Origin: an uncultured Candidatus Saccharibacteria bacterium
GTDB lineage: Bacteria > Patescibacteriota > Minisyncoccia > 2-02-FULL-40-12 > GWA2-44-9
Assembly (NCBI GenBank): GCA_964356795.1
Contig: CAYHIK010000006.1
Span: 10,286 to 70,648, forward strand
Reading direction: 5' to 3'
DNA: 60,363 nucleotides
Positions 6,104 to 44,777 of the stretch are shown here, piece after piece (the first letter of the stretch is position 1; each line of letters begins with the position of its first letter). The position numbers and the translations under genes were made by a program. The notes beneath the pieces were generated by a model. The model worked only from the letters and a program-made list of their open reading frames with translations, was not told the origin of the DNA and did not search any database.

Positions 6104-6793
6104 CTAGCGCTTTGGCCCAACCACGACCACGAACTCGCCGAGCACTTCATCGGCAGAAAGTGCGGCAGCGACCTCTTCGACAGTGCCCCGATAGAGGGTT
6201 TCGAACTTTTTGGTGAGCTCACGAGCCACGAGAATGGGACGATGTGGGGTTTCGGCAACCACAAACGCATCCTTCATTTCGGCGAGGCACTTCTCGATGC
6301 GATATTTCGACTCATAGAATACGATTGTGTCCTCGGATTCTGCTAATTCTCTGACAAACGTCTGCCGTCCCTTCTTGTGTGGTACGAATCCCCAGTATTG
6401 ATATCGGTCGGCAGGAAATCCGCTTACCGAGAGCGCTGCAACTCCGGCATTTGCGCCCACGATTGGCACCACACGCAAATCGGGAATCTCAACGAGTAAT
6501 AATTCAATGAGCCGGCCCCCTGGGTCGTTGATCCCCGGCGTTCCCGCATCGCTCACGAGTGCGAGATTTTTTCCCTCATGGAGCATCGCAAGCACACGAT
6601 CATCAACCCCCTTCCCGCTGTGCTGGTGATACGCGATGAGCGGTTTATGAATCTCAAAATGCGCGAGAAGTTTTACCGTCACGCGCGTGTCTTCGCACAG
6701 AATCGCATCCACCTCTTTCAGCGTCTCAATGGCCCGCAGGGTGATGTCCTGCAGGTTTCCAATGGGCGTTGCAACAATCGAGAGCGTCGCCAT
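6104..6793 (-). CDS. rsmI: 16S rRNA (cytidine1402-2'-O)-methyltransferase
   Basis: LSIVATPIGNLQDITLRAIETLKEVDAILCEDTR is a typical RsmI N-terminus. Confidence 0.85.
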   Translation of the reverse strand: MATLSIVATPIGNLQDITLRAIETLKEVDAILCEDTRVTVKLLAHFEIHKPLIAYHQHSGKGVDDRVLAMLHEGKNLALVSDAGTPGINDPGGRLIELLLVEIPDLRVVPIVGANAGVAALSVSGFPADRYQYWGFVPHKKGRQTFVRELAESEDTIVFYESKYRIEKCLAEMKDAFVVAETPHRPILVARELTKKFETLYRGTVEEVAAALSADEVLGEFVVVVGPKR

Positions 6794-6795
6794 AG

Positions 6796-7836
6796 CTATG
6801 CAGAACGACGAGATGACTTGAATCGCGCCATATCATCGAGCAACTCAACAAATATCGTAGCAACCGGCACGCCCACGAGCGCGCCCGCAACCCCCGCCAA
6901 CTGCCAACCAATCAAAATCGCGAGAATAACGACGACAGGATTGAGTCCGGTCGTCTTGCCCAGCACCAGCGGTACGAGAATGTGGTTCTCCGATTGCTGA
7001 ATCACCGTCCACATAATGAGCACCCAGAGCCCCAAGATTGGCTCTTGGATAAACGCCATCAACACCGCGGGAATTGCCGCCAACACTGGGCCCGCGATAG
7101 GGATAATCTCCAACATCATTGCAATGATTGCAAAGACGAGTGCAAATTTCACCCCAAGCAATGAAAGCCCAATGAACACCAGCAACCCCACGATAAGCGC
7201 GAGCAAGAGTTGCCCCTGCAGCCAAAGGCCCACCTTTATCTCCACGCGATGCCATAAATCAATCACATACTCCTCGTATCGCTCGGGGACCACTGCGGAA
7301 AGGAAGTTCTGAATACCGTCTTTCATTACTGAAAGATAGAACGAAATCACCAAAATTGAGACAAACGCAAACACTCCGCCGAACGCACCTGCGAGCAAAT
7401 TGAGCGCTGATTGCGAGAATTGCTGGAGATAGCCCGAGAGAAGCTCTAAAATGTTTTGTAATTCTGCAACAAAATCAAAGTATTTCGGCGACCCCTGTTG
7501 CACTGTGTCGAGTGAATCTGAAATCTGCATCGTGAGCTTCGGGAGCAACGACGTGAGGCTCGATAATTCAGAGAGCACCGATGGCAGTACGAGCGATGAG
7601 AGCACCACGCCGATTGCCAACACCATCAAATAAAGCGAAAGCACGCCCAAAATACGTGGCACGCCACGCTTTGCGAGCCAGGTCGCGAACGGTGAAACCC
7701 CAGATGCAACGACAATAGAAAACAATAAAATCAACACCACCTCCGAGAGGAGGTAGAGCACCCCGAATCCAAGCACGACCAACATTGCCCGGAACACACT
7801 CGCGGTTGAAATATCGAAAATTTGACGCTCTGCCAT
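6796..7836 (-). CDS. AI-2E/PerM (UPF0118) family membrane protein
   Basis: Multi-TM protein with an IIPIAGPVLAAIP-type C-terminal core. ATG 7836 was chosen because the longer ORF overlaps the upstream gene. Confidence 0.7.
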   Translation of the reverse strand: MAERQIFDISTASVFRAMLVVLGFGVLYLLSEVVLILLFSIVVASGVSPFATWLAKRGVPRILGVLSLYLMVLAIGVVLSSLVLPSVLSELSSLTSLLPKLTMQISDSLDTVQQGSPKYFDFVAELQNILELLSGYLQQFSQSALNLLAGAFGGVFAFVSILVISFYLSVMKDGIQNFLSAVVPERYEEYVIDLWHRVEIKVGLWLQGQLLLALIVGLLVFIGLSLLGVKFALVFAIIAMMLEIIPIAGPVLAAIPAVLMAFIQEPILGLWVLIMWTVIQQSENHILVPLVLGKTTGLNPVVVILAILIGWQLAGVAGALVGVPVATIFVELLDDMARFKSSRRSA

Positions 7837-7840
7837 AGAA

Positions 7841-9124
7841 TTATGTGAACTTGAGTACTTCGCGGAACTCGTCTTCCGCAACCGATGGGCCAATGATAGC
7901 GAGGTTGAGCTTATCATTCGTGAAGAGATCCGCGGCCACCGAGCGCACGTCGTCGCTCGTGATTGCCTGAATCTTCTGGAGCTCTTCTTCGGGGGTAATC
8001 ACGCGATCATAGTAGAGCACCGAACCGCCGTAATCATCCGCCACTCCGCCCGTGCTCTCGAGCGTAAACGCCATGCGCCCTTCGGCTTGGTCTTTCACGC
8101 GCTTGAGTTCTTCCTGGGTGACGCCGTCGGCGGCAATCTTCGCCATTTCCGCCAAAATAACCGTGATACCTTCAGCGGCTTTGGCACGATTGAGTCCTGC
8201 GCCTACTTCAAAATATCCGGAATCAGAGTAGTTCGAATTACCCGCCCACACATAGTACGCGAGTCCCCGCTTCTGGCGCACCTCATCGAATAATCTCGAG
8301 CTCATGCCCCCGCCCAACACCTGGGCCATGAGTGCCGCAGGATAGCGACGGTCGTCGAACATATCGAATCCCCGCACACCAAGATTCACATAGAGCTGTT
8401 CTACATCTTTGGAGATCCCTCGGAGCGCAGGGACTGATTGAGACTCCTTCACGGGCAATTTATCGGAGCGTTCCGCCTGACGGATTCGCGCAAATACCTC
8501 TTCAACTTTTGCCTTCACGTGTTCTGGGTCGATACCGCCTGCCACCGCGATGACGGTATTGGATGCGACGTAGTGCGTATCGAACCATGAGCGCAAATCG
8601 GGCGCCATCATTGCGTTAATTGTCCCCTCGGTACCACCAACTTCCCATCCTGCGGGTTGATCGCCATACAAAAGTTCTTCAAAAATGCGCCCAATGTGCT
8701 GTTGCGGATCATCGCGACGCATGCGTAATTCCTCATTGATTGGCCCACGCTCGATCTCCATCGCCCCCTGGTCGAGTTTTGAGTTTAAGAAAATATCGAA
8801 TACGACATCCATAATCGTATCGATCTTGGTGGCTGCCGCTTTTGCGTAGTATCCAGTAACCTCTTTGCCCGTAAATGCATTGTAGGATGCGCCGATTCCA
8901 TCGAGCTCACGACTAATGTCAACGTATCCGGGGCGCTTCTGTGTGCCTTTGAATATCATGTGCTCAAGAAAATGCGAAATACCACCCAAGTTCTTGGGCT
9001 CATACTTTGAACCGCACTTCACGAGCACCAACACCGTCGCTGTTTTGGCGGCCGGCATCGGCACCGTTACGAGGCGTAATCCCGAACTCAGTGTGTGTAA
9101 TTGATATGCAAGTCCTTGTTCCAT
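7841..9124 (-). CDS. M16 (pitrilysin) family zinc peptidase
   Basis: HFLEHMIFKGT (HxxEH) inverted zinc motif. Confidence 0.85.
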   Translation of the reverse strand: MEQGLAYQLHTLSSGLRLVTVPMPAAKTATVLVLVKCGSKYEPKNLGGISHFLEHMIFKGTQKRPGYVDISRELDGIGASYNAFTGKEVTGYYAKAAATKIDTIMDVVFDIFLNSKLDQGAMEIERGPINEELRMRRDDPQQHIGRIFEELLYGDQPAGWEVGGTEGTINAMMAPDLRSWFDTHYVASNTVIAVAGGIDPEHVKAKVEEVFARIRQAERSDKLPVKESQSVPALRGISKDVEQLYVNLGVRGFDMFDDRRYPAALMAQVLGGGMSSRLFDEVRQKRGLAYYVWAGNSNYSDSGYFEVGAGLNRAKAAEGITVILAEMAKIAADGVTQEELKRVKDQAEGRMAFTLESTGGVADDYGGSVLYYDRVITPEEELQKIQAITSDDVRSVAADLFTNDKLNLAIIGPSVAEDEFREVLKFT

Positions 9125-9164
9125 GTGCGTAGTATAACAGATGCGGTACCTCGTAATTATGTTT

Positions 9165-9237
9165 CTGCCGGTGAATGGAGTTGAACCATTTTCTGGTCGT
9201 TATGAGTGACCTGTTCTAACCGTTGAACTACACCGGC
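9165..9237 (-). tRNA. tRNA-Met(CAU)-like, non-canonical
   Basis: Reverse complement is GCCGGUG-UA-GUUC..GAAC-A-GGUCA-CUCAUAA-CGACC-AGAA-AAUGG-UUCAAACU-CCAUU-CACCGGC-A. 1:72 is paired, so elongator type. It has an A31:C39 mismatch and an 8-nt T loop. Confidence 0.6.
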
Positions 9238-9917
9238 TTGGAAATATGCTGAAGGAGCCCCTCCATAAGCCCGCTGATTATATAGTATAATTCAGTACTT
9301 TTCAAGACTGTGACGCGAAGCGTGCCGTAATACTTATTGTGATTCTCGTATCGCTTCTTCTGTTTTGTGCTCACAAATATCGTCTTTCGGAACTGCCGCG
9401 ATGAAATGCCCAGATAACGAGACCAGAATCGTTGTACGGCAGCCTCACGCTTGCGATGCATCTCGTTGATGAGGATCGAAACGGCTACATCACGAACGCT
9501 CCGTGCGAAAAACTTTTCGAGCCAGCGCATCATAAACATCACAACTCGCGGATCTGCATTCACGAAATGTACCTGCCTCATTGTTTTTGCTCCCTCCGCA
9601 AGATAGAGCGTAAGGCCAGCTGTAAAGAATTCGTCGTCGGAAAGGCTGGTAAATCGCGTGCGCCCCTCAATCGCATACTTTCCGATAACCGCCAACCGCT
9701 TTTCTCTTTGTCGTAATGCGCCGAGCACCTGTCCTCGCCGAACAGCACCTTGCTTTCGGCGAGAGAGGCTTAATTGCTGTGCGTTCGTGAGTGAGATATC
9801 ATGACACCACCGGCTCGCGCTTGATACTGAAACCCCAAGCTCTGCGGCTATTTCGTGGACACTCTTTCCTCGACTTCTTAGGCTCCGAGCCCGCAAACGT
9901 AATTCTGATTTAGCCAT
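9228..9917 (-). CDS. HTH protein with a LAGLIDADG-like (single-motif) endonuclease-like domain
   Basis: N-terminal SVHEIAAELGVSVSSASRW helix-turn-helix. GLTLYLAEGAK resembles a LAGLIDADG motif, followed by GTLRVTVLKSTELYYIISGL. The 3' end overlaps the tRNA at 9165-9237 by 10 nt. Confidence 0.45.
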   Translation of the reverse strand: MAKSELRLRARSLRSRGKSVHEIAAELGVSVSSASRWCHDISLTNAQQLSLSRRKQGAVRRGQVLGALRQREKRLAVIGKYAIEGRTRFTSLSDDEFFTAGLTLYLAEGAKTMRQVHFVNADPRVVMFMMRWLEKFFARSVRDVAVSILINEMHRKREAAVQRFWSRYLGISSRQFRKTIFVSTKQKKRYENHNKYYGTLRVTVLKSTELYYIISGLMEGLLQHISKPV

Positions 9918-9990
9918 GTATTTAGTATATCAGGTTTTTGATGCATACTACACGTGTACCTTTTTTTGAAGTACGAGGCATCAACATTCC

Positions 9991-10019
9991 TTGATATTCT
10001 GTGGCAAGTTATGTATACT
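9991..10019 (+). promoter_or_regulatory. Sigma70-like promoter for tRNA(CAU)
   Basis: TTGATA, 17 nt, TATACT, about 17 nt upstream of the tRNA 5' end. Confidence 0.55.
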
Positions 10020-10036
10020 CCATAGGTCCATCACAT

Positions 10037-10319
10037 CGCGGGGTGGAGCAGCGGTAGCTCGTCAGGCTCATAAGAAATTGTGACTTTACACAGAAATGTG
10101 TATCGAAAACACTCGAAACTGCGGGAAACCCCACCGGTTCATCCGAGGGCAATCCGCAACCAAGCCCCTCCTCCTCTCAAGGATTTGGGGAAGGCTCAGA
10201 GACTATAATGGGTGCATCCTCGCTCGCAAGAGACGGATGATGGGATAGTCCGACACTCCGAGGAATCGGATCAAAGCGAAATAAGGAGATGGTCGGGGGT
10301 TCGAATCCCTCCCCCGCAA
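10037..10319 (+). tRNA. Initiator-type tRNA(CAU) interrupted by a group I intron (possibly a pseudogene)
   Basis: 5' half CGCGGGG-UG-GAGC-AGCGGUA-GCUC-G-UCAGG-CUCAU (10037-10071). 3' end UGGUC-GGGGG-UUCGAAU-CCCUC-CCCCGCA-A (10290-10319). C1:A72 mismatch as in initiators. About 210 nt intervene after the anticodon. The expected CCUGA 3' anticodon-stem strand was not found. Confidence 0.6.
10072..10282 (+). ncRNA. Group I intron (3' boundary uncertain)
   Basis: P1 UCAU(10068-71)/GUGA(10080-83) with U:G at the splice site. P2 UACACA-GAAA-UGUGUA (10087-10102). AAACUGCGGGAAAC (10116-29) pairs with CCGCA (10154-58). CAGAGACUAUAAUGG (10197-10211). UCCGA-GGAA-UCGGA hairpin (10257-70). These resemble Azoarcus/Tetrahymena core segments recalled from memory. 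Confidence 0.65.
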
Positions 10320-10331
10320 CAAGTAAATCAA

Positions 10332-10355
10332 GGCGCCCCTTTACGGGGCGTTTTG
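10332..10355 (+). terminator. Intrinsic terminator
   Basis: GCGCCCC-UUUAC-GGGGCG followed by UUUU. Confidence 0.7.
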
Positions 10356-10359
10356 GTTT

Positions 10360-10567
10360 ACTTTGTTCGGGTCAGGATTCGAAGGGTATCCGGAAAATCT
10401 GAACTGCTTCAGGTTTTCCGGAACCCCGGCTCTGGAGGAGTGGTGAGGCCTGCGCCATAGGCGCCTGCCGAGCCGCGGAGGAAGAGGAATCCCTCTACAA
10501 TGCTTGAGGCCGAATCCCTCACCCGCGCCACGGTTGACAGTGCACCAGAAACAGAGCACTGTTTTTT
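10360..10567 (+). ncRNA. Structured leader or small RNA of unknown class
   Basis: 14-bp hairpin 10390-10421. Nested stems CGGCUC/GAGCCG and GCGCC/GGCGC. Twin GAGG..CCUC hairpins. Terminator CAGUGC..GCACUG plus U6 (10538-10567). The next ORF starts 33 nt downstream. Confidence 0.35.
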
Positions 10568-10599
10568 GGTTGCTTAACAACCCAACTAAAGGAGTCACG

Positions 10600-10947
10600 A
10601 TGCCGAAACGATCACTTGCTTCGGTCAATTACGCCCAGAATGTTATTCCTCCCGATTACAAGTGTGACGGTTGCGGAGCTACAGAGGTCAAGCTGTGGCG
10701 AGAATATCAAACATTTGCGGACCATACGAAGCTACTCTGTGTTGACTGCGCTGGCAAAGATCAGAAAAAAGATACGAGCAACGTTGACGACAAAGGATTT
10801 CGGACGGATCAGCGGTTCGGTTATAAAACAGACCAGATTGGCTGGTATATGCCCGCCGTCCCCATTGAGGGAGATGACACCTACTGGGGCTACGCATCAG
10901 TCCCTCAGGAGGGCATCGCTTGGTGGCGAAATCTACCAACCAGATAG
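10600..10947 (+). CDS. Small zinc-ribbon protein (hypothetical)
   Basis: AAGGAG 7 nt upstream of ATG 10600. CDGCG..CVDC. Confidence 0.6.
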   Translation: MPKRSLASVNYAQNVIPPDYKCDGCGATEVKLWREYQTFADHTKLLCVDCAGKDQKKDTSNVDDKGFRTDQRFGYKTDQIGWYMPAVPIEGDDTYWGYASVPQEGIAWWRNLPTR

Positions 10948-11032
10948 GCCGTCATCAAACTCCCACACCAGCTACACCGTATCTGTATCTTCAGGCGGCA
11001 CCTATGCCAAAAAATAGGAGCAAGGAAACCGT

Positions 11033-11293
11033 ATGATTACGTCTGTCGCACAGGGAGTCAAGAACTACAGAGCCGAACTCCGCGCATACGCTCGGTGGGT
11101 AAATAAGAAGAAAAAGGAGTACGGAAACGAGAACCCCCTGTCTGGCTGGGGTGGTAGCGACTGGAGAAGGATCAACGGCTGGAACGACGAACTCCGAGCC
11201 ATGGAAAAGGTCCTCGGGCTCACCGCACAAGAAGCCAAGAGCATCGAAGTCGAGTGCCGGGTTGCGCAGAAGAAACCCAAGTCGTCGTCCTAG
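11033..11293 (+). CDS. Hypothetical small basic protein
   Basis: AGGAGCAAGG upstream of the ATG; a terminator follows. Confidence 0.5.
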   Translation: MITSVAQGVKNYRAELRAYARWVNKKKKEYGNENPLSGWGGSDWRRINGWNDELRAMEKVLGLTAQEAKSIEVECRVAQKKPKSSS

Positions 11294-11305
11294 CCACGAG
11301 AGCCC

Positions 11306-11333
11306 GCCCATCCCTAGGGTGGGCCCTTTCTTA
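11306..11333. terminator. Bidirectional intrinsic terminator
   Basis: GCCCAUCC-CUA-GGGUGGGC hairpin between convergent genes. Confidence 0.6.
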
Positions 11334-12143
11334 TTAACCGTTCACGTGACGGGGGTATTTTTCGACTTCTTCCTTCAGCTCTTGATTGCTCGGACGCTTC
11401 TTTACCAGTCTCCGCCAACCGTAATCTCCGGCTGGATCCCATGGACAAATTGAGCGCATAGCGACTAAGTGTGGCTGCTCTACTCTCCCTGTGTCGGGGT
11501 CGCGTCTCGTGTACCAAATAATCTGACAATTTCTAATCCTATCAACGGGGTCGTCAGACTTGTTCAGGCGGATAAAATCATCATGTCCCATATGTTCCAG
11601 CTCCAGCTGGAGTGCGCGCATCACGTGCCCATGACAAACGGCGATAACGCGACGATCAGATGCTTCGCGAGCAATATGCTCCAAGAAATCCGCCTTCAGC
11701 CTCAAGCAGAGCGCGGGAATAGACTCTCCACCACCAGCAGGATACGAAAGAAATGGGTCTTGCTCATATTGCCGCTGTTCGCGCTCAAAGAGTGATTTCT
11801 TCTCATCATCGGGAAGATTATCAAGTAGTCCGTGGTCACGCTCGCGCAATTGATATTCGACTCGCCACTCTGCCTGAGGAAGATTCAATAGCGCCGCTGT
11901 TTCCTTGGCTCGGATGTAATCTGAAACATAGAATCTATCGAGTGGCGTGGGTATATTCTTCCGCAACCATTCGCCAGCTGATGTTGCTTGTTCGATACCC
12001 TTATCAGTCAATCGAAATGATCTACTGTGTTTTTCGCGGAATTCAGGAGTAAAGAATCGATTATCTCCCTTCCGACTGAATTTGTTGGCAACATTTCCCT
12101 CCGACTCTCCATGACGTACGAGGATAATATCGACAGGTAGCAT
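11334..12143 (-). CDS. Histidine phosphatase (phosphoglycerate mutase-like) family protein
   Basis: ILVRHGESEGN (RHG motif) and CHGHVMRAL. ATG 12143; the track start 12170 is a TTG. Confidence 0.75.
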   Translation of the reverse strand: MLPVDIILVRHGESEGNVANKFSRKGDNRFFTPEFREKHSRSFRLTDKGIEQATSAGEWLRKNIPTPLDRFYVSDYIRAKETAALLNLPQAEWRVEYQLRERDHGLLDNLPDDEKKSLFEREQRQYEQDPFLSYPAGGGESIPALCLRLKADFLEHIAREASDRRVIAVCHGHVMRALQLELEHMGHDDFIRLNKSDDPVDRIRNCQIIWYTRRDPDTGRVEQPHLVAMRSICPWDPAGDYGWRRLVKKRPSNQELKEEVEKYPRHVNG

Positions 12144-12266
12144 GTTTTGATATTCGAATAAATTGCGCAATCTGTCAAAAACCCCGCCGAGACTCCCCTT
12201 AGGCCATTACGAAGTATTTGACGTTAAAGAATATTTGTGTTATATTGAAATAGAAGGAGGCATGAC

Positions 12267-12659
12267 ATGGACACGCTGTGGTTTTCGGTGGCTCTCGGAC
12301 TACTGGCATTCGCCCTCGGGGCGTGGTGGCAGCACAATCGGCTGAGCCGCTCCCTCACCAGCCTGAAGTGGTACCGGGCAAGCCACCTGCGTAAACAAGG
12401 GTGGTCCCTGGGATTCGGACAGTATGAGCTCCAATCTCTGGACGGCGGGAAGAACTGGTTCTCCGTCATCAGCGTCGGTGGCGGCGGGATCCAAGCAACG
12501 GGGCCAGCGGACCTGAAGCTCTTGGACCACTTGGCGGCATGGGATGCGCTGACCGCTCGGGTTGTCCGAGGTGGTCCCCTGAACCTATCACACGCAGACG
12601 ACCGAAAACTCCTGGAGCGCGCTGGACTCCAGGCGGTCTCCCGCGAGTGCACGTCGTAG
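12267..12659 (+). CDS. Hypothetical membrane-anchored protein
   Basis: GGAGG upstream of the ATG, N-terminal TM helix, terminator follows. Confidence 0.55.
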   Translation: MDTLWFSVALGLLAFALGAWWQHNRLSRSLTSLKWYRASHLRKQGWSLGFGQYELQSLDGGKNWFSVISVGGGGIQATGPADLKLLDHLAAWDALTARVVRGGPLNLSHADDRKLLERAGLQAVSRECTS

Positions 12660-18825: not shown

Positions 18826-19374
18826 ATGGCGCGCTTCGACGCTCAGGCAAGTATCAAAATAATACTCGGTTGGATTGCAGTCTTTCTGGTCCGCCTATTC
18901 CCTTGGCGACCTGCAAATATGGAGCCCATTCTTGCGACGATGATGCCGTTCGCAAAACAATACGGCCCAAGCGGCGCATTCATCTTTGGCGCAATGAGTA
19001 TCGCACTGTTCGATGCAGTTGTGGGAAAGATTGGCCAATGGACCGCAATCACTGCGCTCGCGTATGGACTCGTAGGGATTGGCGGGTGGTATTTCTTGAA
19101 GAATCGCATGCCAGGAGCGCTTACATGGACGACCTACGGCGTTATCGGCACACTGGCATACGACGCACTCACCGGCCTCACCGTGGGACCGCTGATGTTT
19201 GGCCAATCATTCCGCGAGGCATTTATTGGGCAAATTCCATTCACCCTCATGCACCTCGCAAGCACCGTCACACTCTCGCTCACCCTCTCTCCCGCGATAC
19301 ATCGATGGGTCACCACAAATAACGCCCTCGAGCTTTCCTCGGTTCAGTCGAGGCTTGCTCATGCGGTCCACTAG
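18826..19374 (+). CDS. Small multi-TM protein, putative vitamin/corrinoid uptake component
   Basis: About 6 TM segments, 182 aa. The function call rests only on the upstream riboswitch. The track start 18715 lies inside the riboswitch. Confidence 0.45.
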   Translation: MARFDAQASIKIILGWIAVFLVRLFPWRPANMEPILATMMPFAKQYGPSGAFIFGAMSIALFDAVVGKIGQWTAITALAYGLVGIGGWYFLKNRMPGALTWTTYGVIGTLAYDALTGLTVGPLMFGQSFREAFIGQIPFTLMHLASTVTLSLTLSPAIHRWVTTNNALELSSVQSRLAHAVH

Positions 19375-21032
19375 ATACGCTCGGGAGTTCCGATGCCAAG
19401 CACCGCGAGACCATCGCGAATCGTACGCATCACCGCCTCGATGAGCTGAATGCGCGCTGATTTGCGCTCAGCATTCTCGTCATCTCCGATGTGGACTTGC
19501 TCATAGAAGCGATTTGCCTTCTCTGCGAGCTCATATACATACAGCGCCAGCGCGTTGAGTGTGTGGAATTGTGCACATGTCGCAATCGCGTCACCATAAT
19601 CGAAGAGATGCCGCATAAGCGCGCGCTCTGCGGGATGCACAAGCGTAGACCTATCAGCGGGACCGCATGGGCCCACCTTCGTCACGATGCTCGCCAAACG
19701 TGCATATGTATATTGCAAATACGGCCCCGAGTTTCCGCCTAAATCGAGCATAGCATCCCAGTCGAACACGATATCGGAATACGGATGCTGCTTAAGGTCG
19801 TTGTATTTGAGCGCGCCAATTCCCACCACACGCGCAATCGCCTCTACTTCATCATCCGTGAGAGCGCTATTCTTCGCGCGCACCACGCCACGAGCGCGCG
19901 TAATCACTTCGTCGATAATCGTCTGAAGCGGAACCGCATTCCCCTCGCGTGTAGAGAACTTTTTGCCATCCTCACCCAACACGAGCCCAAACTTCACGTG
20001 CGCGAGATCGGGGATCCCCTGCATCCGCATTTTCTGTACCGTTGCGAAGAGCTGTTCAAAGTGAAGCACCTGCTCGTTTGCAACCACATAGAGCGCTTTT
20101 GCGGGCGCGTAGCGTGCGATACGATCCTCGAGCGATGCGATATCACGCGTGAGGTAGAGTGTCGCACCATCCGATTTTCGAATCATCGCGACAGGCAATC
20201 CGAACTCTTCGAGGTCAACGATGAGCGCACCCCCACTGGGACGGGCGAGGTTGGCGTCAAGTAACCGCTGTACTAATGGTGCGAGCACGGATTCATACTC
20301 GGACTCTCCTTTGTATATATCAAATGAAACATCGAGCACCTCGTACGTGCGCCCATATTCTGCGAGCGAGAGCTCGCGGAAGCGCGTCCAGAGTGCACGA
20401 TTCTCTTCATCACCGTCTTCCAGTTTTTTGAATTCCAAACGACCTTCATCTTCGAGCGCTGGATTCTCTTTCATGTCTGCGTGAAATCGCACGTAGAGCT
20501 TCACCAAATCATCAACCGTTGCGATAGGCTCATTGTATTTCTTGAATGCCGCAATAAGCTTTCCAAACTGCGTCCCCCAATCTCCCAGGTAGTTCCAGCG
20601 AATCGCCTCATATCCCAGCGCGCGATACACACGCGAAAGTGCATCGCCGATAATGGTGCTTCGCAGGTGCCCCACATGCATCGGCTTTGCAATGTTCGGC
20701 GCAGAACAATCAATCACCACTTTTGCGCCGTGCCCGACATCAGGAATAGTTCGGTGCGCGAACTGCGTCTGCAACCAATCAAGACGCACAAACACGTTCA
20801 CAAATCCGGGCCCCGCGACTTCGCACCGCTCAATGCGATCAGCTCCACGCTCGAGAAGTGCAGCGCACATATCATTCGCCACATCGCGTGGATTTTTCTT
20901 CTCATATTTTGCCACGATAAAGGCGAGGTTTACCGAATAATCTCCCATCGCCACGTCAGGCGGAACCAGCACATCAAAAAGATGCCCGGGATAGAGCTCT
21001 GTCAGTGTTGTGCGAAGCCACGTGCGGAACAT
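19371..21032 (-). CDS. argS: Arginyl-tRNA synthetase
   Basis: NIAKPMHVGHLRSTIIGDA; C-terminal anticodon-binding region. Confidence 0.9.
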   Translation of the reverse strand: MFRTWLRTTLTELYPGHLFDVLVPPDVAMGDYSVNLAFIVAKYEKKNPRDVANDMCAALLERGADRIERCEVAGPGFVNVFVRLDWLQTQFAHRTIPDVGHGAKVVIDCSAPNIAKPMHVGHLRSTIIGDALSRVYRALGYEAIRWNYLGDWGTQFGKLIAAFKKYNEPIATVDDLVKLYVRFHADMKENPALEDEGRLEFKKLEDGDEENRALWTRFRELSLAEYGRTYEVLDVSFDIYKGESEYESVLAPLVQRLLDANLARPSGGALIVDLEEFGLPVAMIRKSDGATLYLTRDIASLEDRIARYAPAKALYVVANEQVLHFEQLFATVQKMRMQGIPDLAHVKFGLVLGEDGKKFSTREGNAVPLQTIIDEVITRARGVVRAKNSALTDDEVEAIARVVGIGALKYNDLKQHPYSDIVFDWDAMLDLGGNSGPYLQYTYARLASIVTKVGPCGPADRSTLVHPAERALMRHLFDYGDAIATCAQFHTLNALALYVYELAEKANRFYEQVHIGDDENAERKSARIQLIEAVMRTIRDGLAVLGIGTPERI

Positions 21033-21098
21033 GTGAAAAATATAGCAGTTTTCAGCAGGAATGAAAAAGCCCCGACACAGTTCGTGTCGGGGCGGTAC

Positions 21099-21743
21099 TC
21101 ACCGATGCATCTCCGCGATGGTGACCGCGGAAGTGTCCGTCACCTTCTTAATGGCCCGCGAAAGCCGCTTCTGACTCACCTTATCAGCGGGCATCTCAGC
21201 CAACTCGCGCTGGAGAATGTCACGAACCTGCGCCTTCACGTCGGCATCGTAGCAGCCCAGCATGAACACCGCGCTCGGCCCATTCACGCTGATCTCTTCG
21301 CCAATCTCGCCGGTAAACTCTACGAGCCGAACATCTCCGGAACGACTCGCACCGAGACAAAGCACGGGGAGGCCAAGCGGCTCGCGCGCATCTTCCAAGA
21401 TGTACCGGCAGTACGCGCCAAGCGCGGTAAGCGCGGCTGGTGCGTGGAAATCTTTTCCTCCGGGACTGTAGAGCTCACGCGACTCCCGAAACGCAGCCTT
21501 GATGACCGATTCGATATCCCTGAAGTGTGCGCCAGAGGGAGAGGCGTAGAAGATCGAGAAGTTCTCGAAATGCACCGTCCCCGGAGACCCATCGGTCGCC
21601 GTGACGACGTATCCGATGACGTCATGTTCGGACTGGGGAGGGCGCACGAATGCGACGAAGTGCTTCGCCAACATCGCCTGCGCGGCCGCAACCTTGGTGA
21701 GGTATGCGGTAAGCGCAACGCTCTTACATCCGCGATTCTTCAT
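21099..21743 (-). CDS. Proteasome alpha-subunit-like protein (no N-terminal Thr)
   Basis: TGATG overlap with the upstream beta-like gene. RGCKSVALTAY resembles the actinobacterial PrcA segment AKSVVALAY (from memory). Confidence 0.45.
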   Translation of the reverse strand: MKNRGCKSVALTAYLTKVAAAQAMLAKHFVAFVRPPQSEHDVIGYVVTATDGSPGTVHFENFSIFYASPSGAHFRDIESVIKAAFRESRELYSPGGKDFHAPAALTALGAYCRYILEDAREPLGLPVLCLGASRSGDVRLVEFTGEIGEEISVNGPSAVFMLGCYDADVKAQVRDILQRELAEMPADKVSQKRLSRAIKKVTDTSAVTIAEMHR

Positions 21744-22579
21744 CACTTCCTCCGTCGAGGCTTCGGCTGACCCGTAGCCAGAAGCTTCGCGATGCGCTGA
21801 TTTGCCCAACGCTTCGTCAACAGCGCGGTACCGAGGGCGCGTTCGATTTCATCGCTCGGCAAGAACTCGACGCCCTTTTTCGAGGTAATCACAACCACCG
21901 TGGGCGTTGCAATCACCGCATCCGAACTTCCCGAGTCACGCCAGCCCGAGTGGGCAAGACAGTGCATGGCAACGATAAGCGCGTCTTTTCGCGAAAGATC
22001 CGGAACCCAGCGTGCATCGAGCTGGTCTTCCACGCGGAATCCACCAGATCCATTACTCGCATGGTGCGGACGCAGCAAGACGCACCCATCACTCTCCAGC
22101 TCGAAGATATGAGCGCCTTCGGCGTCCAATCCAGCGAGGATAGAACCGGCTTCGAACGCGTCACCGTAGTACGCGTGCCAGAATCGCAACAGCTCGGAAA
22201 GGTACGCGCTCTGACCCTCGATGCTCAAGGGGTAATCGTTCGAATCGCGGAATTCGCGGTTCGCGGTAGCCAGCGTCTTCTCGATGAGCTGAATGGAGCT
22301 GACGTCGCCACATCCCAACACAACAGACAACTGATCCACCTGCCGAATCTTGATACTGTCCTGCGCAACAATGGAGTACCCCCATCCCGACGTCTTACGG
22401 TCGGCGGCGCACATGATGCCGTCAGCGTATTTCATCGTGAAGATGGTTGTCCCGCTATGAATCCGATGCTTTCCTGGCCCCGACGAACCACGAGCGCCCG
22501 CCCGCATAGTAGCGGCCTTCCGAAGGGCACTCGCTGGAAATGCGTCTCGTACCGCCCGTTGCAATAGATCGCTTCTCAC
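21743..22579 (-). CDS. Proteasome beta-subunit-like Ntn hydrolase with propeptide
   Basis: HSG|TTIFTMKYADGIMCAADRKTS gives Thr1 and Asp17. SIKIRQV gives a Lys33-like residue. GCGDVSS. GTG start 22579 with AGGAGG 7 nt upstream. Confidence 0.65.
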   Translation of the reverse strand: MRSDLLQRAVRDAFPASALRKAATMRAGARGSSGPGKHRIHSGTTIFTMKYADGIMCAADRKTSGWGYSIVAQDSIKIRQVDQLSVVLGCGDVSSIQLIEKTLATANREFRDSNDYPLSIEGQSAYLSELLRFWHAYYGDAFEAGSILAGLDAEGAHIFELESDGCVLLRPHHASNGSGGFRVEDQLDARWVPDLSRKDALIVAMHCLAHSGWRDSGSSDAVIATPTVVVITSKKGVEFLPSDEIERALGTALLTKRWANQRIAKLLATGQPKPRRRK

Positions 22580-22638
22580 CTGATACCTCCTAGGAAGTAA
22601 ACGAACGTTGCGCAGACGGTACTATAAATGCCCGATAA

Positions 22639-23742
22639 ATGAAAGAGCCCGTCAATACCCTTGAAGAATTTCAGCGTTCCCCGCATACTACATTTCATAT
22701 GGACGCAAAAACATTTGACCGATTAACGATCGATGCAGTTCGCAAGGTAACCCCCGCAGTGGTAAGTATTGTCGTCTCGAAGTATCTCCCCCGTATTCAC
22801 GACATCAATCCGGCGCAACTCTTCAACCCATTCATGATGGGTGACGTCGAAGATGGCGCAGGGCAAAAAGTAAAAGTTGGTGGTGGCTCGGGATTCATCG
22901 TACACCCCGACGGACTCATCCTTACCAATAAACACGTCGTCTTTGACGCCGAAGCAGAGTATGCAGTCGTGATGAACGACGGCTCAGAGCATCCCGTCAA
23001 AGTGCTTTCCCGCGACCCCATCAATGACATCGCGGTGCTGAAGATGGAAGGAGTGAATCTCCCCCATGCAGAGCTCGCAAGCTCCACCGAAATCGAGCTC
23101 GGGCAAACCGTCATCGCCATTGGTAACGCGCTTGGATTATTTTCAAACTCGGTGAGCAAGGGAATTATCTCGGGTCTCTCTCGGAGTATTTCCGCATCGC
23201 TGGGCGGAGCACCGGGAGCGCACATGGAACAGCTTCGTGGCGTGATTCAAACAGACGTCGCCATCAACCAGGGTAACTCGGGAGGCCCCCTGGTGAACCT
23301 CGACGGAGACGTTGTCGGCATCAACACCGCCGTCATCTTTGGTGCACAGAATATCGGATTCGCACTTCCGATTGATTGGGTCAAAGGTGACCTCGAAGAC
23401 ATCGTGAAACACGGACGCATCATCAAGCCGTTCCTCGGCCTCATGTACGTGATGATTACCACCGATCTTGCACAACGCTACGCGCTCTCCATCAATCACG
23501 GCGCGATGATTATCCGCGACCACCGTCCTGATGCGCACGCCGTGCTCGCAGGCTCGCCCGCCGACAAAGCTGGCCTCAAAGAACACGACATCGTTACTCA
23601 TCTCGATGGCGTGGAGCTCTCTGCGGGCACCGACCTCACCGACATGCTCCAGAAGCACAGCGTTGGAGATGCAATTCCCATGCGATACCTCCGCGACGGA
23701 AAAGAGCACGAGTGCACTGTCACGCTCACGGAGCGCACCTAA
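22639..23742 (+). CDS. htrA: HtrA/DegP-family serine protease with PDZ domain
   Basis: GNSGGPLVNLDGDVVGINTA; C-terminal PDZ (GSPADKAGLKEHDIV). Confidence 0.9.
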   Translation: MKEPVNTLEEFQRSPHTTFHMDAKTFDRLTIDAVRKVTPAVVSIVVSKYLPRIHDINPAQLFNPFMMGDVEDGAGQKVKVGGGSGFIVHPDGLILTNKHVVFDAEAEYAVVMNDGSEHPVKVLSRDPINDIAVLKMEGVNLPHAELASSTEIELGQTVIAIGNALGLFSNSVSKGIISGLSRSISASLGGAPGAHMEQLRGVIQTDVAINQGNSGGPLVNLDGDVVGINTAVIFGAQNIGFALPIDWVKGDLEDIVKHGRIIKPFLGLMYVMITTDLAQRYALSINHGAMIIRDHRPDAHAVLAGSPADKAGLKEHDIVTHLDGVELSAGTDLTDMLQKHSVGDAIPMRYLRDGKEHECTVTLTERT

Positions 23743-24251
23743 TGGAACTTACCCTCTTTCGCTTTCTCAACGGATTGACTGGCCAGGGGTGGGATTCACT
23801 CATCACGTTTTGCGCCACTAATCTCCAATATATAGTAGGCGGGGTGTTTATCGTTGCGACGCTCTGGCCGTTGCGGCGCATACGAATGCTCATCATCTCG
23901 CTCACGGCGGCCGTCATTGCTCGCTTCGGAGTAAAGTCTGCCATCCTCCTCTTCGTTGAACGCGCACGCCCGTTCGCCACACTCACCGATGTGCGAAATA
24001 TCATTGGCGTTGATGTCGGAGAAAACCTCCAGTCATTCCCCTCTGGTCACGCAATCTTTTTCTTTGCGCTTGCGACTGCAGCTCACAGCTTCAGCCCACG
24101 AATTGGGCGCTGGCTTTTTGTGGGGGCGATACTCATCAGCATCTCTCGTGTCATCGGTGGTGTTCATTGGCCGTCAGACATTCTCGTCGGCGCGCTCTTA
24201 GGCATCCTCATCGGCTGGGCAGTCGCCAAACTCTCTCGGCAATTCATATAA
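23742..24251 (+). CDS. PAP2-family phosphatase (undecaprenyl-diphosphatase-like)
   Basis: SFPSGHA and SRVIGGVHWPSD. TAATG overlap with htrA. Confidence 0.8.
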   Translation: MELTLFRFLNGLTGQGWDSLITFCATNLQYIVGGVFIVATLWPLRRIRMLIISLTAAVIARFGVKSAILLFVERARPFATLTDVRNIIGVDVGENLQSFPSGHAIFFFALATAAHSFSPRIGRWLFVGAILISISRVIGGVHWPSDILVGALLGILIGWAVAKLSRQFI

Positions 24252-24281
24252 AAAGCCGACTCCTCGAGAGTCGGCCTTGCG

Positions 24282-24545
24282 CTACAATGCCAGTAACCAC
24301 GGGCCCAAAACAGTAACAACCGTAGTGCATATGGCGCCGAACACGATTCCGAACACGAACGGAAGAAGTACACATTCGAGTATTGCCACGAACAGCGCGA
24401 ATCCCACCATCGAATCGCCAGCGCGTCGCCGCTTATACTCAAAGTACGTGGCGGTCGCCAGAAGGAGCCCCGCCGCAAGGCACGGACCGCCCAGCGGATG
24501 AAGCGCCCCGATAAGAAGTCCAATCCCGACAACAGCCCAGTTCAT
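24282..24545 (-). CDS. Small membrane protein (hypothetical)
   Basis: GGAGGG upstream of ATG 24545; 3 TM segments. Confidence 0.45.
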   Translation of the reverse strand: MNWAVVGIGLLIGALHPLGGPCLAAGLLLATATYFEYKRRRAGDSMVGFALFVAILECVLLPFVFGIVFGAICTTVVTVLGPWLLAL

Positions 24546-24607
24546 ACGCCCTCCAATTGGCAAGGTTCGTTCTGTACGGTACAGTGATGTCACAGACCTG
24601 TAAAGCA

Positions 24608-25054
24608 ATGGCTGATTACGCAACCAACCCACGCGCACGATTCGATTACGAAATCCTCGAGACCCTCGAGGCAGGAATTACGTTGCGTGGCTACGAGGTC
24701 AAAAGCATTAAAACGGGCCGCATCAGCATCAAGGGCGCATACGTGCGCATGATTGCCGGCGAACCCTGGCTCGTGGGCGCGTCGATGCCTCCCTATCAAC
24801 CTGGCAACGTTCCACCAGAATACAAAGAACAAGCAGACCGAAAACTCCTCTTGAGCAGAAGCCAAATCGCATCCCTTATCGGGCTCGCGCAATCGCACGG
24901 CATCACACTCGTTCCCCTGCGCCTCTACGACAAAAAAGGAATGATTAAACTCGAGATTGGTGTCGCGCGAGGCAAAAAGAAATACGACAAACGCGAGAGT
25001 ATCAAGAAAAAAGATACTGAGCGTGCGCGCATGCGTGGCATGAGTGAGGAATAA
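24608..25054 (+). CDS. smpB: SsrA-binding protein
   Basis: NPRARFDYEILETLEAGI.L.G.EVKS, GARGKKKYDKRE. Confidence 0.9.
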   Translation: MADYATNPRARFDYEILETLEAGITLRGYEVKSIKTGRISIKGAYVRMIAGEPWLVGASMPPYQPGNVPPEYKEQADRKLLLSRSQIASLIGLAQSHGITLVPLRLYDKKGMIKLEIGVARGKKKYDKRESIKKKDTERARMRGMSEE

Positions 25055-25092
25055 CAACAACAAACGCCACCCCTCGGGGTGGCGTTTTTGCG

Positions 25093-25365
25093 CTACGATG
25101 CTTCCGACTCCTTCCTGACAGCATCTCGCTTCCGCTGTTCGCGACGCTCTTCTTCTCGCGCGGTGAGGCGGTCAAAGTAGATATCGAGAATCGCACCCTC
25201 AAGCACGAGGTACTTCTCATGCTCTCCAAGTCCGGGATGTCGAATGAGCCGTGCAAGCGTCGAGACTTCACGGTCAGAAATCTCGCCCGCGATTGCGCTC
25301 AGCTTTTTTCGCCAATGAAGCACGAGGTCCATCTGTGGACGCTTCTTCTTGCTGCGTTTTCCCAT
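25093..25365 (-). CDS. Hypothetical basic protein
   Basis: ORF with ATG 25365; a terminator lies downstream. Confidence 0.4.
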   Translation of the reverse strand: MGKRSKKKRPQMDLVLHWRKKLSAIAGEISDREVSTLARLIRHPGLGEHEKYLVLEGAILDIYFDRLTAREEERREQRKRDAVRKESEAS

Positions 25366-25461
25366 GACCCCTCCAAAGAACTCGAGAACTCTACCGCATC
25401 TCTTGCATCGGAGCAATCACACGCCTACACTTGCGAGACGTTCTTTCCAAAGGAGCATGCC

Positions 25462-26151
25462 ATGCATCTCGTACTCGGCCTTGCGCTTCTCCTGCAAGTC
25501 GCGCCGACACCCGACGAGCCCCAACTTCCATCGCGAGCGCAGATTGTCGATGCGTACGCTGAACTCTCCGACTTCACGGCACTCGTCATCGATGCGCTTC
25601 CTGCGCGCATGAACGTTGATGCTCGCAAGCCGCACATCGGATTCACCCTTCGCACCGAAGATGCGGGCATCAGCCCCGAAGGACTTCAACAGCGGCATAC
25701 GTTCATCTTCAGCGTCATTCACGGTTCAGCGGCAGACATCGCAGGGGTTCGCCCCGGCGATCGCATCACTGCAATTGACAACATCACGTGCGACACGCTG
25801 GCACCAAAGGCGGTCATCTTCTATCTCGCCGATTACCCCACCGTGGTTCCGCTCACACTCGAGCACGACGGCGCACAGCGCACCGTACGCATTGAGCGAG
25901 CCCCACTCCTGTGCGCAATGGCAGTGTGGGATGCGTTCCCTGAAGCGCTCTGGCGGAGTCGCTTCGCGAAGCTCTACGGATTCATCGCGGAGAAGCTTTC
26001 CGAGCTCAAATCCAAGGAGCTCTCCGAAATCCAAACGGTCGAAGAAATCGCCAACATCCAGAATACCTCGGTGTTCATCGATCAGGCGCTCACCCTTATG
26101 AGTAATCAGCTCGACTTTACGAAAAGCCCATACTGCGAAATGAAGCAGTAA
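25462..26151 (+). CDS. Secreted PDZ-domain protein
   Basis: AAGGAG upstream of ATG 25462. Signal-like MHLVLGLALLLQVAP. GSAADIAGVRPGDRITAIDN. Confidence 0.6.
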   Translation: MHLVLGLALLLQVAPTPDEPQLPSRAQIVDAYAELSDFTALVIDALPARMNVDARKPHIGFTLRTEDAGISPEGLQQRHTFIFSVIHGSAADIAGVRPGDRITAIDNITCDTLAPKAVIFYLADYPTVVPLTLEHDGAQRTVRIERAPLLCAMAVWDAFPEALWRSRFAKLYGFIAEKLSELKSKELSEIQTVEEIANIQNTSVFIDQALTLMSNQLDFTKSPYCEMKQ

Positions 26152-26189
26152 AAAAAACCAGCCCCCGCCTTAGCGGGGGCCTTTTCGTA

Positions 26190-26408
26190 TTACATCCCAG
26201 CGCGATGGCTCTGCATGATCTTCAGCGCCTCATCCAAGCTCGCGTGAAGCTTTTGTGCCGAGAGTGGCGCCAGACGCTCGAGCTCGTTCCTGCCGAGCTT
26301 GGTCAAGAACAACCCGACCGCGTAATCATCAGGCTCGCAGCGAACCCGCCTCACCTTCACCCGACAATGACATCCGACCTCACACATCTTGTGGCCCCCG
26401 CTTGCCAT
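26190..26408 (-). CDS. Hypothetical small protein
   Basis: GGAGG 7 nt upstream of ATG 26408. Confidence 0.45.
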   Translation of the reverse strand: MASGGHKMCEVGCHCRVKVRRVRCEPDDYAVGLFLTKLGRNELERLAPLSAQKLHASLDEALKIMQSHRAGM

Positions 26409-26443
26409 AGAAACCTCCAGAAAGCCTCAGAATACGCTAAAAC

Positions 26444-26472
26444 TTGAAAAAATGCAAATTCTGTGCTATACT
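26444..26472 (+). promoter_or_regulatory. Sigma70-like promoter for ssrA
   Basis: TTGAAA, 17 nt, TATACT; the tmRNA 5' end lies 10 nt downstream. Confidence 0.6.
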
Positions 26473-26481
26473 AGTATTTGA

Positions 26482-26829
26482 GGGGATGATCGGTTTCGAC
26501 ACTGCATCATACCTTCACGATGCCATATGCGGTCGGCCGGTAACCGCACAAAACACCGGTCAAACATATAACTGGCTATTCTAACGCCAATTACGCGTTC
26601 GCCTAAGGGCGTCGCGCATCGCACCCTGACGCTTGCTACGGGATTCTGCGGTGTCATCTAGCTCGCTCTGGTTGACCACACGTGTGTCGTGGTCCGCCGA
26701 AACAATGACACACTAGTTTGCGATTATTTTTCCGGTTCTCTACTCGCGAGCAACATACCAAATCGGATACTGTGGTAGCACATCGTGATCGTATCGTAGT
26801 GGACTAGGGTTCGATTCCCTACATCTCCA
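26482..26829 (+). ncRNA. ssrA: tmRNA
   Basis: 5' GGGGAUGAUCGGUUUCGAC. Tag frame ..GYSNANYAFA ends with TAA at 26604-26606. 3' GGACUAGGGUUCGAUUCCCUA-CAUCUCC-A. The acceptor pairs with G3:U70. CCA is not encoded. Confidence 0.85.
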
Positions 26830-43226: not shown

Positions 43227-43247
43227 CTCGTGGTATACTGAAGTGGC

Positions 43248-43979
43248 ATGGATTCGATTGGCATGTATATGCTCCTCGTTACTATCGGGGTACTTCCGAG
43301 CTTAATTTGGCTTGCCTACTGGCTTCGCAAAGACGCACACCCAGAACCCAAAGTGCTCATCACCAAGGTGCTCCTCCTTGGCATCATCCTCTCCCCGCTC
43401 GCGATTATCTTTCAACTCCTGTTTGTGCAGTTCATTGCTCGACTCTTCGGACTCCCATCCTCCACACTCTCTGATGGTCCGATGTTCTACCTCTGGGCCG
43501 CATTCGTCGAGGAATTAGTGAAATACGCTGCAGTTTATTTCATTGTGCTTCGCTCGCCTGATTTCGACGAGCCTGTTGACGCGATGATTTACATGCTGAC
43601 CGCCGCGCTCGGCTTTGCAGCCATGGAAAACATTCTCGTCATCAATCGAGTCGCCGCCGACGGCATCGCTGCCACCGTCGGCATCTGGAGCCTCCGATTC
43701 GCGGGCGCCACGCTTCTGCATGCACTCTCTTCGGCGCTCTTAGGATACTTCATCGCACTCGCGTGGTACTACTACGAGAAGCGGAAATCGCTCTTCGCCG
43801 TTGGCCTCGCGCTTGCCACGGTATTCCATTGGTCATTTAATCTGTTCATCTCGCAAATGCATAAATCAGTCAGCTTAGTGTTCTCAACTCTCCTGTTGAT
43901 GATTATGGCCTTCCTGATATCTTCATTGTTTGATAAAATAAAGGAACGAGAAGGGCAGGTAACCCCGACCGTTGTTTGA
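43248..43979 (+). CDS. prsW: PrsW-family intramembrane protease
   Basis: AAFVEELVKY and HALSSALLGY motifs; multi-TM. Confidence 0.7.
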   Translation: MDSIGMYMLLVTIGVLPSLIWLAYWLRKDAHPEPKVLITKVLLLGIILSPLAIIFQLLFVQFIARLFGLPSSTLSDGPMFYLWAAFVEELVKYAAVYFIVLRSPDFDEPVDAMIYMLTAALGFAAMENILVINRVAADGIAATVGIWSLRFAGATLLHALSSALLGYFIALAWYYYEKRKSLFAVGLALATVFHWSFNLFISQMHKSVSLVFSTLLLMIMAFLISSLFDKIKEREGQVTPTVV

Positions 43980-43983
43980 ACTC

Positions 43984-44606: not shown

Positions 44607-44619
44607 TCATTACACCTTG

Positions 44620-44703: not shown

Positions 44704-44725
44704 AAAACGCTTCGCTTGCCATCAT

Positions 44726-44759: not shown

Positions 44760-44777
44760 ATTCGTAGCTACGAATGA

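Follow-up and report, generated by a model that had tools for sequence, protein, structure and literature searches.

An intron-split initiator tRNA gene of Patescibacteria, its anomalous 3' junction in one sequence record and its divergent neighbour with a LAGLIDADG-like motif

How can an initiator transfer RNA (tRNA) be produced from a gene that is interrupted by a group I intron and seems to lack a usable 3' splice site? The question is raised by a locus in a stretch of 60,363 nucleotides (nt), here called the window, which comprises positions 10,286 to 70,648 on the forward strand of contig CAYHIK010000006.1 (assembly GCA_964356795.1) from an uncultured Candidatus Saccharibacteria bacterium (GTDB lineage Bacteria; Patescibacteriota; Minisyncoccia; 2-02-FULL-40-12; GWA2-44-9). 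An earlier note on this DNA had described a split initiator-type tRNA gene next to an open reading frame (ORF) with a LAGLIDADG-like motif, and had taken the 3' junction to mean that the gene is decaying into a pseudogene or, alternatively, that it is spliced in a non-standard way. The comparison with related loci gave a different answer: the junction resolves in three assemblies of the same population and in ten distant relatives, and the anomaly in the window is most likely an error of sequencing, assembly or the record. The intron itself belongs to a long-known kind, the group I introns of bacterial tRNA anticodon loops, which include that of the cyanobacterial tRNA-fMet (PMC3984707, PMC1995217).

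Related contigs were retrieved with the neighbouring ORF (9228-9917, minus strand) as the query and, by a second route, by scanning species-representative genomes for a DNA pattern of the P1 junction. The two routes yielded 13 further copies of the split tRNA-fMet locus. Three of these (L001, L002 and L018) are independent assemblies of the same population, from replicates R3, R2 and R1, respectively, of the 0.1-µm fraction of Hainich well H41, and were compared base by base with positions 6655-12522 of the window. The other ten copies stem from more distant Patescibacteria, with metagenome-assembled genomes labelled Paceibacterota, Yanofskybacteria or "Saccharibacteria". Two more Hainich contigs, L022 and L023, cover positions 19098-26890 and 42252-50730 of the window (16.3 kb).

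Both halves of the tRNA gene are present in the window, as had been noted. Exon 1 (10037-10071, plus strand; tRNA positions 1-36) reads CGCGGGG-UG-GAGC-AGCGGUA-GCUC-G-UCAGG-CUCAU, ends in the anticodon CAU and is identical or nearly identical in all relatives. Exon 2 (10283-10319, plus strand; positions 37-73) is canonical in all other copies, with the sequence AACCUGAAGGUCGGGGGUUCGAAUCCCUCCCCCGCAA. In the window, the segment from 10290 to 10319 provides the variable loop UGGUC, the T-arm (GGGGG, UUCGAAU and CCCUC), the acceptor strand CCCCGCA and the discriminator A. Bacterial initiator tRNAs are characterized by the anticodon CAU, by positions 1 and 72 that do not form a Watson-Crick pair, and by an A11:U24 pair; the window has CAU at 10069-10071, a C1/A72 mismatch and A11-U24 in the D-stem (GAGC with GCUC). 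In relative L017, U1 takes the place of C1 and forms a U1-A72 pair. A third consecutive G-C pair in the anticodon stem (29-41, 30-40 and 31-39) is also regarded as a hallmark of bacterial initiators, and this feature speaks against a fully typical initiator: the canonical relatives have A29-U41, G30-C40 and G31-C39, thus two G-C pairs and not three consecutive ones. All three positions are mispaired in the window copy.

The aberrant 3' junction of the window, as described in the note, was also confirmed. U10282 occupies the omega position at the end of the intron, the segment GGAGA (10285-10289) pairs with UCAGG at only two of five positions, and no tRNA was identified by ARAGORN in the spliced window sequence. 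The unspliced gene likewise received no call from this program.

The 211 nt between the exons (10072-10282, plus strand) are a genuine group I intron without an ORF. The Infernal search with model RF00028, which has a gathering score of 50 bits, returned a match to the full length of the model (1-253) at 10060-10272 with 63.1 bits (E=1e-13), and the scores ranged from 57.8 to 83.3 bits at the other loci where the intron was detected. The fold is compatible with P1 to P9 and was recovered by RNAalifold from nine non-redundant homologues for the anticodon stem, P1-P6, P8 and P9 (57 pairs, 22 compensatory), with compensatory changes in P2, P3, P4, P5, P6 and P9 and none in the predicted P8. P1 (10068-10073/10078-10083) contains the pair U10071.G10080 at the splice site, which is invariant in the nine homologues, and P2 (10087-10092/10097-10102) is capped by GAAA. 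These helices are followed by P3 (10110-10114/10210-10214), P4 (10120-10125/10153-10158, strands CUGCGGG and UCCGCA), P5 (10129-10137/10143-10149), P6 (10159-10171/10184-10195) and P8 (10215-10219/10235-10239). P7 (10201-10206/10245-10250) was assigned by inspection; it is invariant, so covariation is uninformative for this helix. P9 (10256-10261/10266-10271) has a GGAA cap in the window and covaries among the homologues, with the strand pairs CUCCGA/UCGGAG, CUGCCA/UGGCAG and CUGUCA/UGGCAG around a loop of GGAA, GUAA or GCAA. P10 consists of two pairs only, A37 and A38 with U10079 and U10078. The stretch CAGAGACUAUAAUGG is also present, and thus all of the group I hallmarks listed in the note (the U.G pair in P1, the capped P2 and P9, the P4 strands and this stretch) were found. 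The core presumably resembles that of the Azoarcus intron in the segments AAAUUGCGGGAAAC..., GAGCCAAG, AGAGACUA... and AUAGUC, as judged by comparison with the Azoarcus sequence and the RF00028 consensus.

Among the relatives, the intron measures 187-258 nt and is free of ORFs except in L015. An extra hairpin of approximately 45-50 nt is located between the 5' strand of P4 and GGGAAAC in L010 and L011 (e.g. CCCGACACGGCAUGUUUGCCGGUCGAGAUCCCGACAAUAAUUGCCGGGA). This hairpin, which the window-type intron lacks, explains why the RF00028 scores of these two loci fall below the threshold. L015 (1795-2243, in the intron of the tRNA-fMet gene at 1699-2410) carries an insertion of 439 nt in the P6 loop, which encodes, antisense to the intron, a canonical LAGLIDADG protein of 141 amino acids (YLAGLIDGEGH) with a score of 23.3 bits to the Pfam model LAGLIDADG_1 (cut-off 23.1 bits). 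The same locus also has an external ORF with a helix-turn-helix (HTH) domain beside the tRNA-fMet gene.

The relatives place the 3' splice site between positions 10282 and 10283. The omega nucleotide is G in 13 of 13 other copies, as compared to T at 10282 in the window. The sequence around the site (marked by a slash) is ...(A/C)AG/AACCUGAAGGUC in 11 of the 13 copies and ...GAAAG/AACCUGAAGGUC in the assemblies from the same population. The segment AACCUGAAGGUC supplies A37, A38 and the CCUGA strand that pairs with UCAGG, which gives the resolved junction omega-G/AA-CCUGA-AGGUC; the exceptions to the CCUGA strand are L010 with CCCGA (AACCCGA) and L017 with CCUGG (AACCUGG). After in-silico splicing at CAU/...G/AA, ARAGORN identified a tRNA-Met(CAU) in each of the 12 complete relatives, as compared to none in the window. 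Moreover, pair 50-64 of the T-stem covaries among the relatives (G.U, U-A, C-G and A-U), which indicates selection for tRNA function in the split gene.

These results bear directly on the proposal of non-standard splicing, either at the site G10263/AAUCGGA with a long variable region or at a 3' site that lacks the omega-G. At the former site, UCGGA would pair with UCAGG at four of five positions and AAU with AUU could form a P10-like helix. However, G10263 is located in the tetraloop of the covarying P9, the canonical omega-G/AACCUGA-type junction of all the relatives lies 19 nt downstream of it, and the product would have a variable region of 24 nt, which is not known from initiator tRNAs. 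Other candidate 3' sites were examined along with this one (G10263, G10277, G10279 and G10285), and none of them yields a tRNA. Since the junction is canonical in all relatives, non-standard splicing is not needed as an explanation, and we consider it highly improbable.

What distinguishes the window is a cluster of seven private substitutions at 10271-10290 (plus strand), identified by the comparison with L001, L002 and L018. From the canonical sequence to that of the window, these are 10271 G>T, 10276 C>G, 10282 G>T, 10285 C>G, 10286 C>G, 10287 T>A and 10290 A>T. Of the 20 nt that the cluster spans, 12 form the end of the intron and 8 the start of exon 2, and the changes remove the closing pair of P9 (C10256-G10271), the invariant C of the linker from P9 to omega, the omega-G, C39, C40, U41 and A44. 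In the entire compared region, the only differences from the window that are common to the three assemblies are these seven and one at 9165. All eight window-private differences are transversions, and when read in the sense of the tRNA each type of base is replaced by one fixed base (four C>G, two G>T, one T>A and one A>T), a pattern that is unlike natural polymorphism. Over the 16.3 kb compared with L022 and L023, a scaffold gap and one single-nucleotide polymorphism were the only differences. With a background rate of roughly 1 per 10 kb, seven changes within 20 nt reflect a single event or a single artefact rather than gradual decay.

We also searched for the origin of the variant 20-mer. 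An IUPAC pattern that allowed any mix of the two variants matched one contig in the metagenome collection, the H41 R1 contig (L018), which carries the canonical form. No sequence similar to the 20-mer, and hence no donor for gene conversion, was found elsewhere in the window on either strand. By inspection, reverse complementation of the canonical segment does not give the 20-mer. An origin by micro-inversion or gene conversion was thus rejected.

Alternatively, the window could carry a real but private null allele, and thus a pseudogene: a multi-nucleotide event would have destroyed the omega-G and the anticodon stem in a sub-population or in relic DNA, with another copy of tRNA-fMet serving initiation. 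This reading would take the variant as the sequence record states it, and error-prone repair can yield clustered multi-nucleotide changes; elsewhere the contig is consistent with the other assemblies and hence not error-prone in general. Yet each of the three replicate assemblies of this well has the canonical allele, the eight transversions follow fixed base directions, the window offers no donor for gene conversion, and ARAGORN identified no other initiator-type tRNA within its 60 kb. Genomes of the candidate phyla radiation (CPR) usually contain single tRNA copies, and the null allele would be dead both for splicing and as a tRNA in a genome with probably one initiator gene. We regard this explanation as improbable, although clearly less so than non-standard splicing.

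An error thus remains our preferred explanation of the cluster, and, judging from the aligned copies, the anomaly does not belong to the biology of the gene family. It weighs against an error that the contig is long and otherwise of high fidelity: outside the cluster, the window is nearly identical to the assemblies of the same population over the approximately 22 kb compared. The private substitutions were judged from assemblies.

The second part of the question concerns the neighbouring ORF of 229 amino acids, which the note had associated with the intron. This association was borne out by the synteny: in 10 of 12 distinct loci, the ORF lies divergently beside a tRNA-fMet gene that carries the intron. 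A homologue with 38-64% identity is located 78-150 nt upstream of the tRNA gene, in divergent orientation, in L004, L008, L009, L010, L012, L015, L016 and L017. Six of the eight loci that were retrieved by the intron pattern alone, and are therefore unbiased with respect to the ORF, have a divergent homologue (38-63% identity). The intron is kept and the ORF absent in L011 and L014, and only 83 bp separate the tRNA-fMet gene of L011 from its tRNA-Met gene. On its far side the ORF has variable neighbours, with the tRNA-Met gene overlapping its stop codon in the window, L004, L009 and L012 and located elsewhere in L010, L016 and L017; the constant partner of the ORF is thus the intron-bearing tRNA-fMet gene. 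This layout would fit a free-standing homing endonuclease that cooperates with an ORF-less intron.

A more distant member of the ORF family (P0100, approximately 29% identity), in L020 (100-420, minus strand), likewise lies in divergent orientation within 78-150 nt upstream of a tRNA-fMet-like gene that also has a group I intron (57.9 bits). The only canonical splice solution for this intron is U33/...G/C34, with the exons ...AGAGGCU and CAUAACCUCU..., which points to a different insertion site, as far as can be judged from a short contig with an unreliable Rfam alignment at the 5' end. The L020 intron contains an internal copy of the window-type P1, GGGCUCAU/GUGAUC.

The domain content of the ORF was examined by profile searches, by conservation within the family and by structure prediction. 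The HTH assignment of the note was supported. In the window ORF this domain is N-terminal and covers residues 3-45 approximately, with a match to HTH_23 just below the cut-off (E=5.5e-5), and 44 of the 64 aligned family members match this model, the best of them with E=3e-10. The C-terminal domain contains a single LAGLIDADG-like motif, GLTLYLAEGAK, at residues 101-111 (family form GLxLYLAEGAK). Across the 64 sequences, G109 shows no variation, and at least 90% of them have E108. When the family profile was compared with the PDB, the sole match was domain 2 of I-DmoI, with E=5.6e-4 for a profile of 20 sequences and E=2.4e-5 for the profile of 64. LYLAEGAK aligns with LYVAEGDK, the second motif of I-DmoI, which places E108 at the catalytic Glu, and the alignment extends through the next strands and helices over approximately 85-115 residues.

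Other tests of the LAGLIDADG relationship weigh against it or gave no significant support. None of the 64 family members matched the Pfam LAGLIDADG models, and the NCBIfam models matched in the HTH region only and yielded no LAGLIDADG hit. The C-terminal domain was modelled by AlphaFold2 with a mean predicted local distance difference test score of 84.5, and the Foldseek search of the PDB with this model returned no match at E<=0.001; I-DmoI had the highest query template modelling (TM) score of the list (0.43), but with E=0.1 and at rank 41. Comparison by hhalign with the intronic LAGLIDADG ORF of L015 brought the motifs into register at a non-significant E=0.04. A Foldseek search with the model of the full-length ORF gave MotB and IspF at the top, with low TM-scores, and was discarded as meaningless. 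Taken together, the HTH domain and the I-DmoI profile match agree with the note, the Pfam, NCBIfam and Foldseek results do not provide the support for a LAGLIDADG domain, and we consider the relationship plausible but not established.

The ORF belongs to a large family: a library clustered at 50% identity contains 5,537 of its representatives at E<=1e-3, of which 2,783 remain at E<=1e-10. No relatives of the ORF were found in viral contigs; the broader alignment was too diverse to serve as a query.

An alternative function is that of a domesticated DNA- or RNA-binding protein, either a regulator that shares the divergent promoter region or a maturase-like helper in splicing. The ORF is intact and syntenic over a range of 38-70% identity, in a family of more than 5,500 cluster representatives, as would be expected for a domesticated gene rather than for a short-lived selfish one, and this is a further point against an endonuclease. 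The N-terminal HTH domain, the divergent intergenic region of 78-150 nt that is common to the ORF and the tRNA gene, and the weakness of the structural and Pfam tests point in the same direction, and LAGLIDADG proteins are known to act as maturases. On the other hand, L011 and L014 retain the intron although they lack the ORF, which indicates that the ORF is not required for splicing. Furthermore, its presence in some loci and absence from others, at a site precisely between two tRNA genes, is reminiscent of a mobile insertion, and the putative catalytic residue E108 is conserved along with the invariant G109. A domesticated function is somewhat unlikely in our estimate.

In the interpretation that we prefer, the locus would be a standard arrangement of the functional type, widespread in Patescibacteria, in which an ORF-less, Azoarcus-like (IC3-type) intron interrupts the anticodon loop at the U36-A37 boundary. 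The pre-tRNA would be transcribed from a promoter near 9991-10019 (plus strand), predicted from a consensus match only. A GC-rich hairpin followed by a T run at 10334-10350 (plus strand), recognized by inspection, is the likely intrinsic terminator of the transcript; the terminator scan listed this hairpin on the minus strand only, and an equivalent hairpin is located 3' of the gene in the relatives. The intron would fold into P1-P9, with U36 fixed in P1 by its U.G pair with G10080, and an exogenous G would attack the bond 3' of this nucleotide. The exons would be aligned by the anticodon stem and the P10 of 2 bp, and the freed 3'-OH of U36 would attack after the omega-G so that CUCAU is ligated to AACCUGA. 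With a P10 of 2 bp only, alignment presumably occurs via the anticodon stem as in Anabaena, where the exons of the pre-tRNA pair in this stem according to the title of Zaug et al. 1993, as cited in PMC3984707.

The ORF most likely encodes a free-standing endonuclease with an HTH domain and a single LAGLIDADG-like motif, which would act as a homodimer; the nuclease activity is predicted from its sequence features. Its predicted target is the pseudo-palindromic DNA of the anticodon arm in intronless tRNA-fMet genes (TCAGGCTCATAACCTGA; ...GCTCGTCAGGCTCATAACCTGAAGGTCG...), a symmetry that would suit a homodimeric enzyme with a single motif. The intron would shield the allele that contains it from cleavage and would spread by co-conversion into the alleles that are cut, as in collaborative homing. 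In that process, an ORF-less intron and a free-standing endonuclease come together at a single target site (PMC3984707).

Several known systems share features with this locus. I-DmoI has the motif LYVAEGDK that aligns with LYLAEGAK of the window ORF, including the catalytic Glu, but the ORF differs from I-DmoI and from single-motif LAGLIDADG enzymes such as I-CreI by its N-terminal HTH domain and by a C-terminal beta-beta-alpha extension. The introns of the Azoarcus tRNA-Ile(CAU) and the Anabaena tRNA-Leu(UAA), both of type IC3, are likewise ORF-less, self-splicing elements of approximately 200-250 nt in the anticodon loops of bacterial tRNAs; they reside in other host tRNAs, and the window intron was classified with the general RF00028 model. 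The insertion position in the window is presumably exactly that of the cyanobacterial tRNA-fMet intron. The latter, from Synechocystis PCC 6803, is also a group I intron in the anticodon loop of an initiator tRNA on a bacterial chromosome (PMC1995217). The associated endonuclease targets the pseudo-palindromic DNA of the anticodon arm (PMC1995217), a recognition described for I-Ssp6803I (PMC3384342), and the ORF in the window may target the corresponding DNA. In contrast to the intron in the window, with 211 nt and no ORF, the Synechocystis intron measures 655 nt and contains the endonuclease gene. The enzyme is a tetrameric PD-(D/E)XK protein, whereas the candidate in the window is a divergent, free-standing HTH and LAGLIDADG-like protein, and the hosts are cyanobacteria as opposed to Patescibacteria.

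The collaborative-homing pairs of phages (e.g. F-CphI with the psbA intron, or T4 mobE with I-TevIII) resemble the locus in that an ORF-less intron is combined, at one conserved target gene, with an adjacent gene for a free-standing endonuclease, which in the window is a candidate (PMC3984707, PMC6083498, PMC2790892). They are found in protein-coding genes of phages and involve enzymes of the HNH or Endo VII type, whereas the locus described here concerns a bacterial chromosomal tRNA gene with stable synteny across lineages and a LAGLIDADG-like candidate. Group I introns in tRNAs of CPR bacteria have been mentioned in passing (PMC8172020), and in the searchable literature we found no description of a tRNA-fMet intron in Patescibacteria, nor of the ORF family and its linkage to it.

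Other elements were observed in the vicinity. On the far side of the ORF, at 9166-9237 (minus strand), there is an elongator-type tRNA(CAU), either Met or Ile2, identified by ARAGORN and with 63.7 bits to RF00005. The note had described it as aberrant, and we found it to be normal: its single mismatch, A31.C39, recurs in L004, L011 and L012, the rest of the stem covaries, and the mismatch is a lineage feature and not a sign of decay. At 9228-9237 the end of the ORF, AAG CCG GTG TAG, doubles as the start of the tRNA-Met gene, to which it contributes 10 nt (GCCGGUGUAG), an overlap that is kept in L001-L007, L009 and L012. The private transversion at 9165 (C on the plus strand as compared to G in four other assemblies) alters C74 after the discriminator of this tRNA-Met; C74 is present in 10 of the 10 relatives examined.

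A structured element of approximately 125-170 nt is located 3' of the tRNA-fMet terminator in the window (10364-10531, plus strand), L008, L009, L011, L012 and L015. It has a covarying closing stem of 12 bp, GGGGAGGGAUUC/GAAUCCCUCCCC, and internal hairpins, with 18 compensatory pairs out of 43, and its 3' end copies that of the tRNA-fMet gene (GAAUCCC.CCCCCGCAACA). Two such elements occur in tandem in L012, and the window has only the second, more divergent type. The comparison with Rfam gave no match, and the element could be a non-coding RNA, a transposable element resembling miniature inverted-repeat elements, or a relic of an attachment-site duplication. Farther away, at 26482-26832 (plus strand), there is an ordinary transfer-messenger RNA gene (RF00023, 99.7 bits; tag GYSNANYAFA) that is identical in L023.

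The seemingly impossible 3' splice site is itself without significance, being private to this record and most likely an error. The significance of the locus lies in what surrounds it. Many CPR bacteria have initiator tRNA genes that are split by introns, and standard tRNA finders overlook these genes (ARAGORN called none of them), which affects checks of genome completeness. Tightly linked to these split tRNA-fMet genes is a large protein family without annotation. If the ORF encodes a true endonuclease that acts on the anticodon arm of tRNA-fMet, collaborative homing would extend from the protein genes of phages to chromosomal tRNA genes of bacteria, and the enzyme would represent a new LAGLIDADG-like scaffold with an additional HTH domain. 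We tentatively suggest, as a possibility short of an even chance, that a long-lived chromosomal partnership in collaborative homing, or a domesticated derivative of it that regulates or matures the initiator tRNA, exists across Patescibacteria. With similar caution, this partnership may be the first for a bacterial tRNA gene and may define a new LAGLIDADG subfamily, with more than one intron position if the insertion site in L020 is right.

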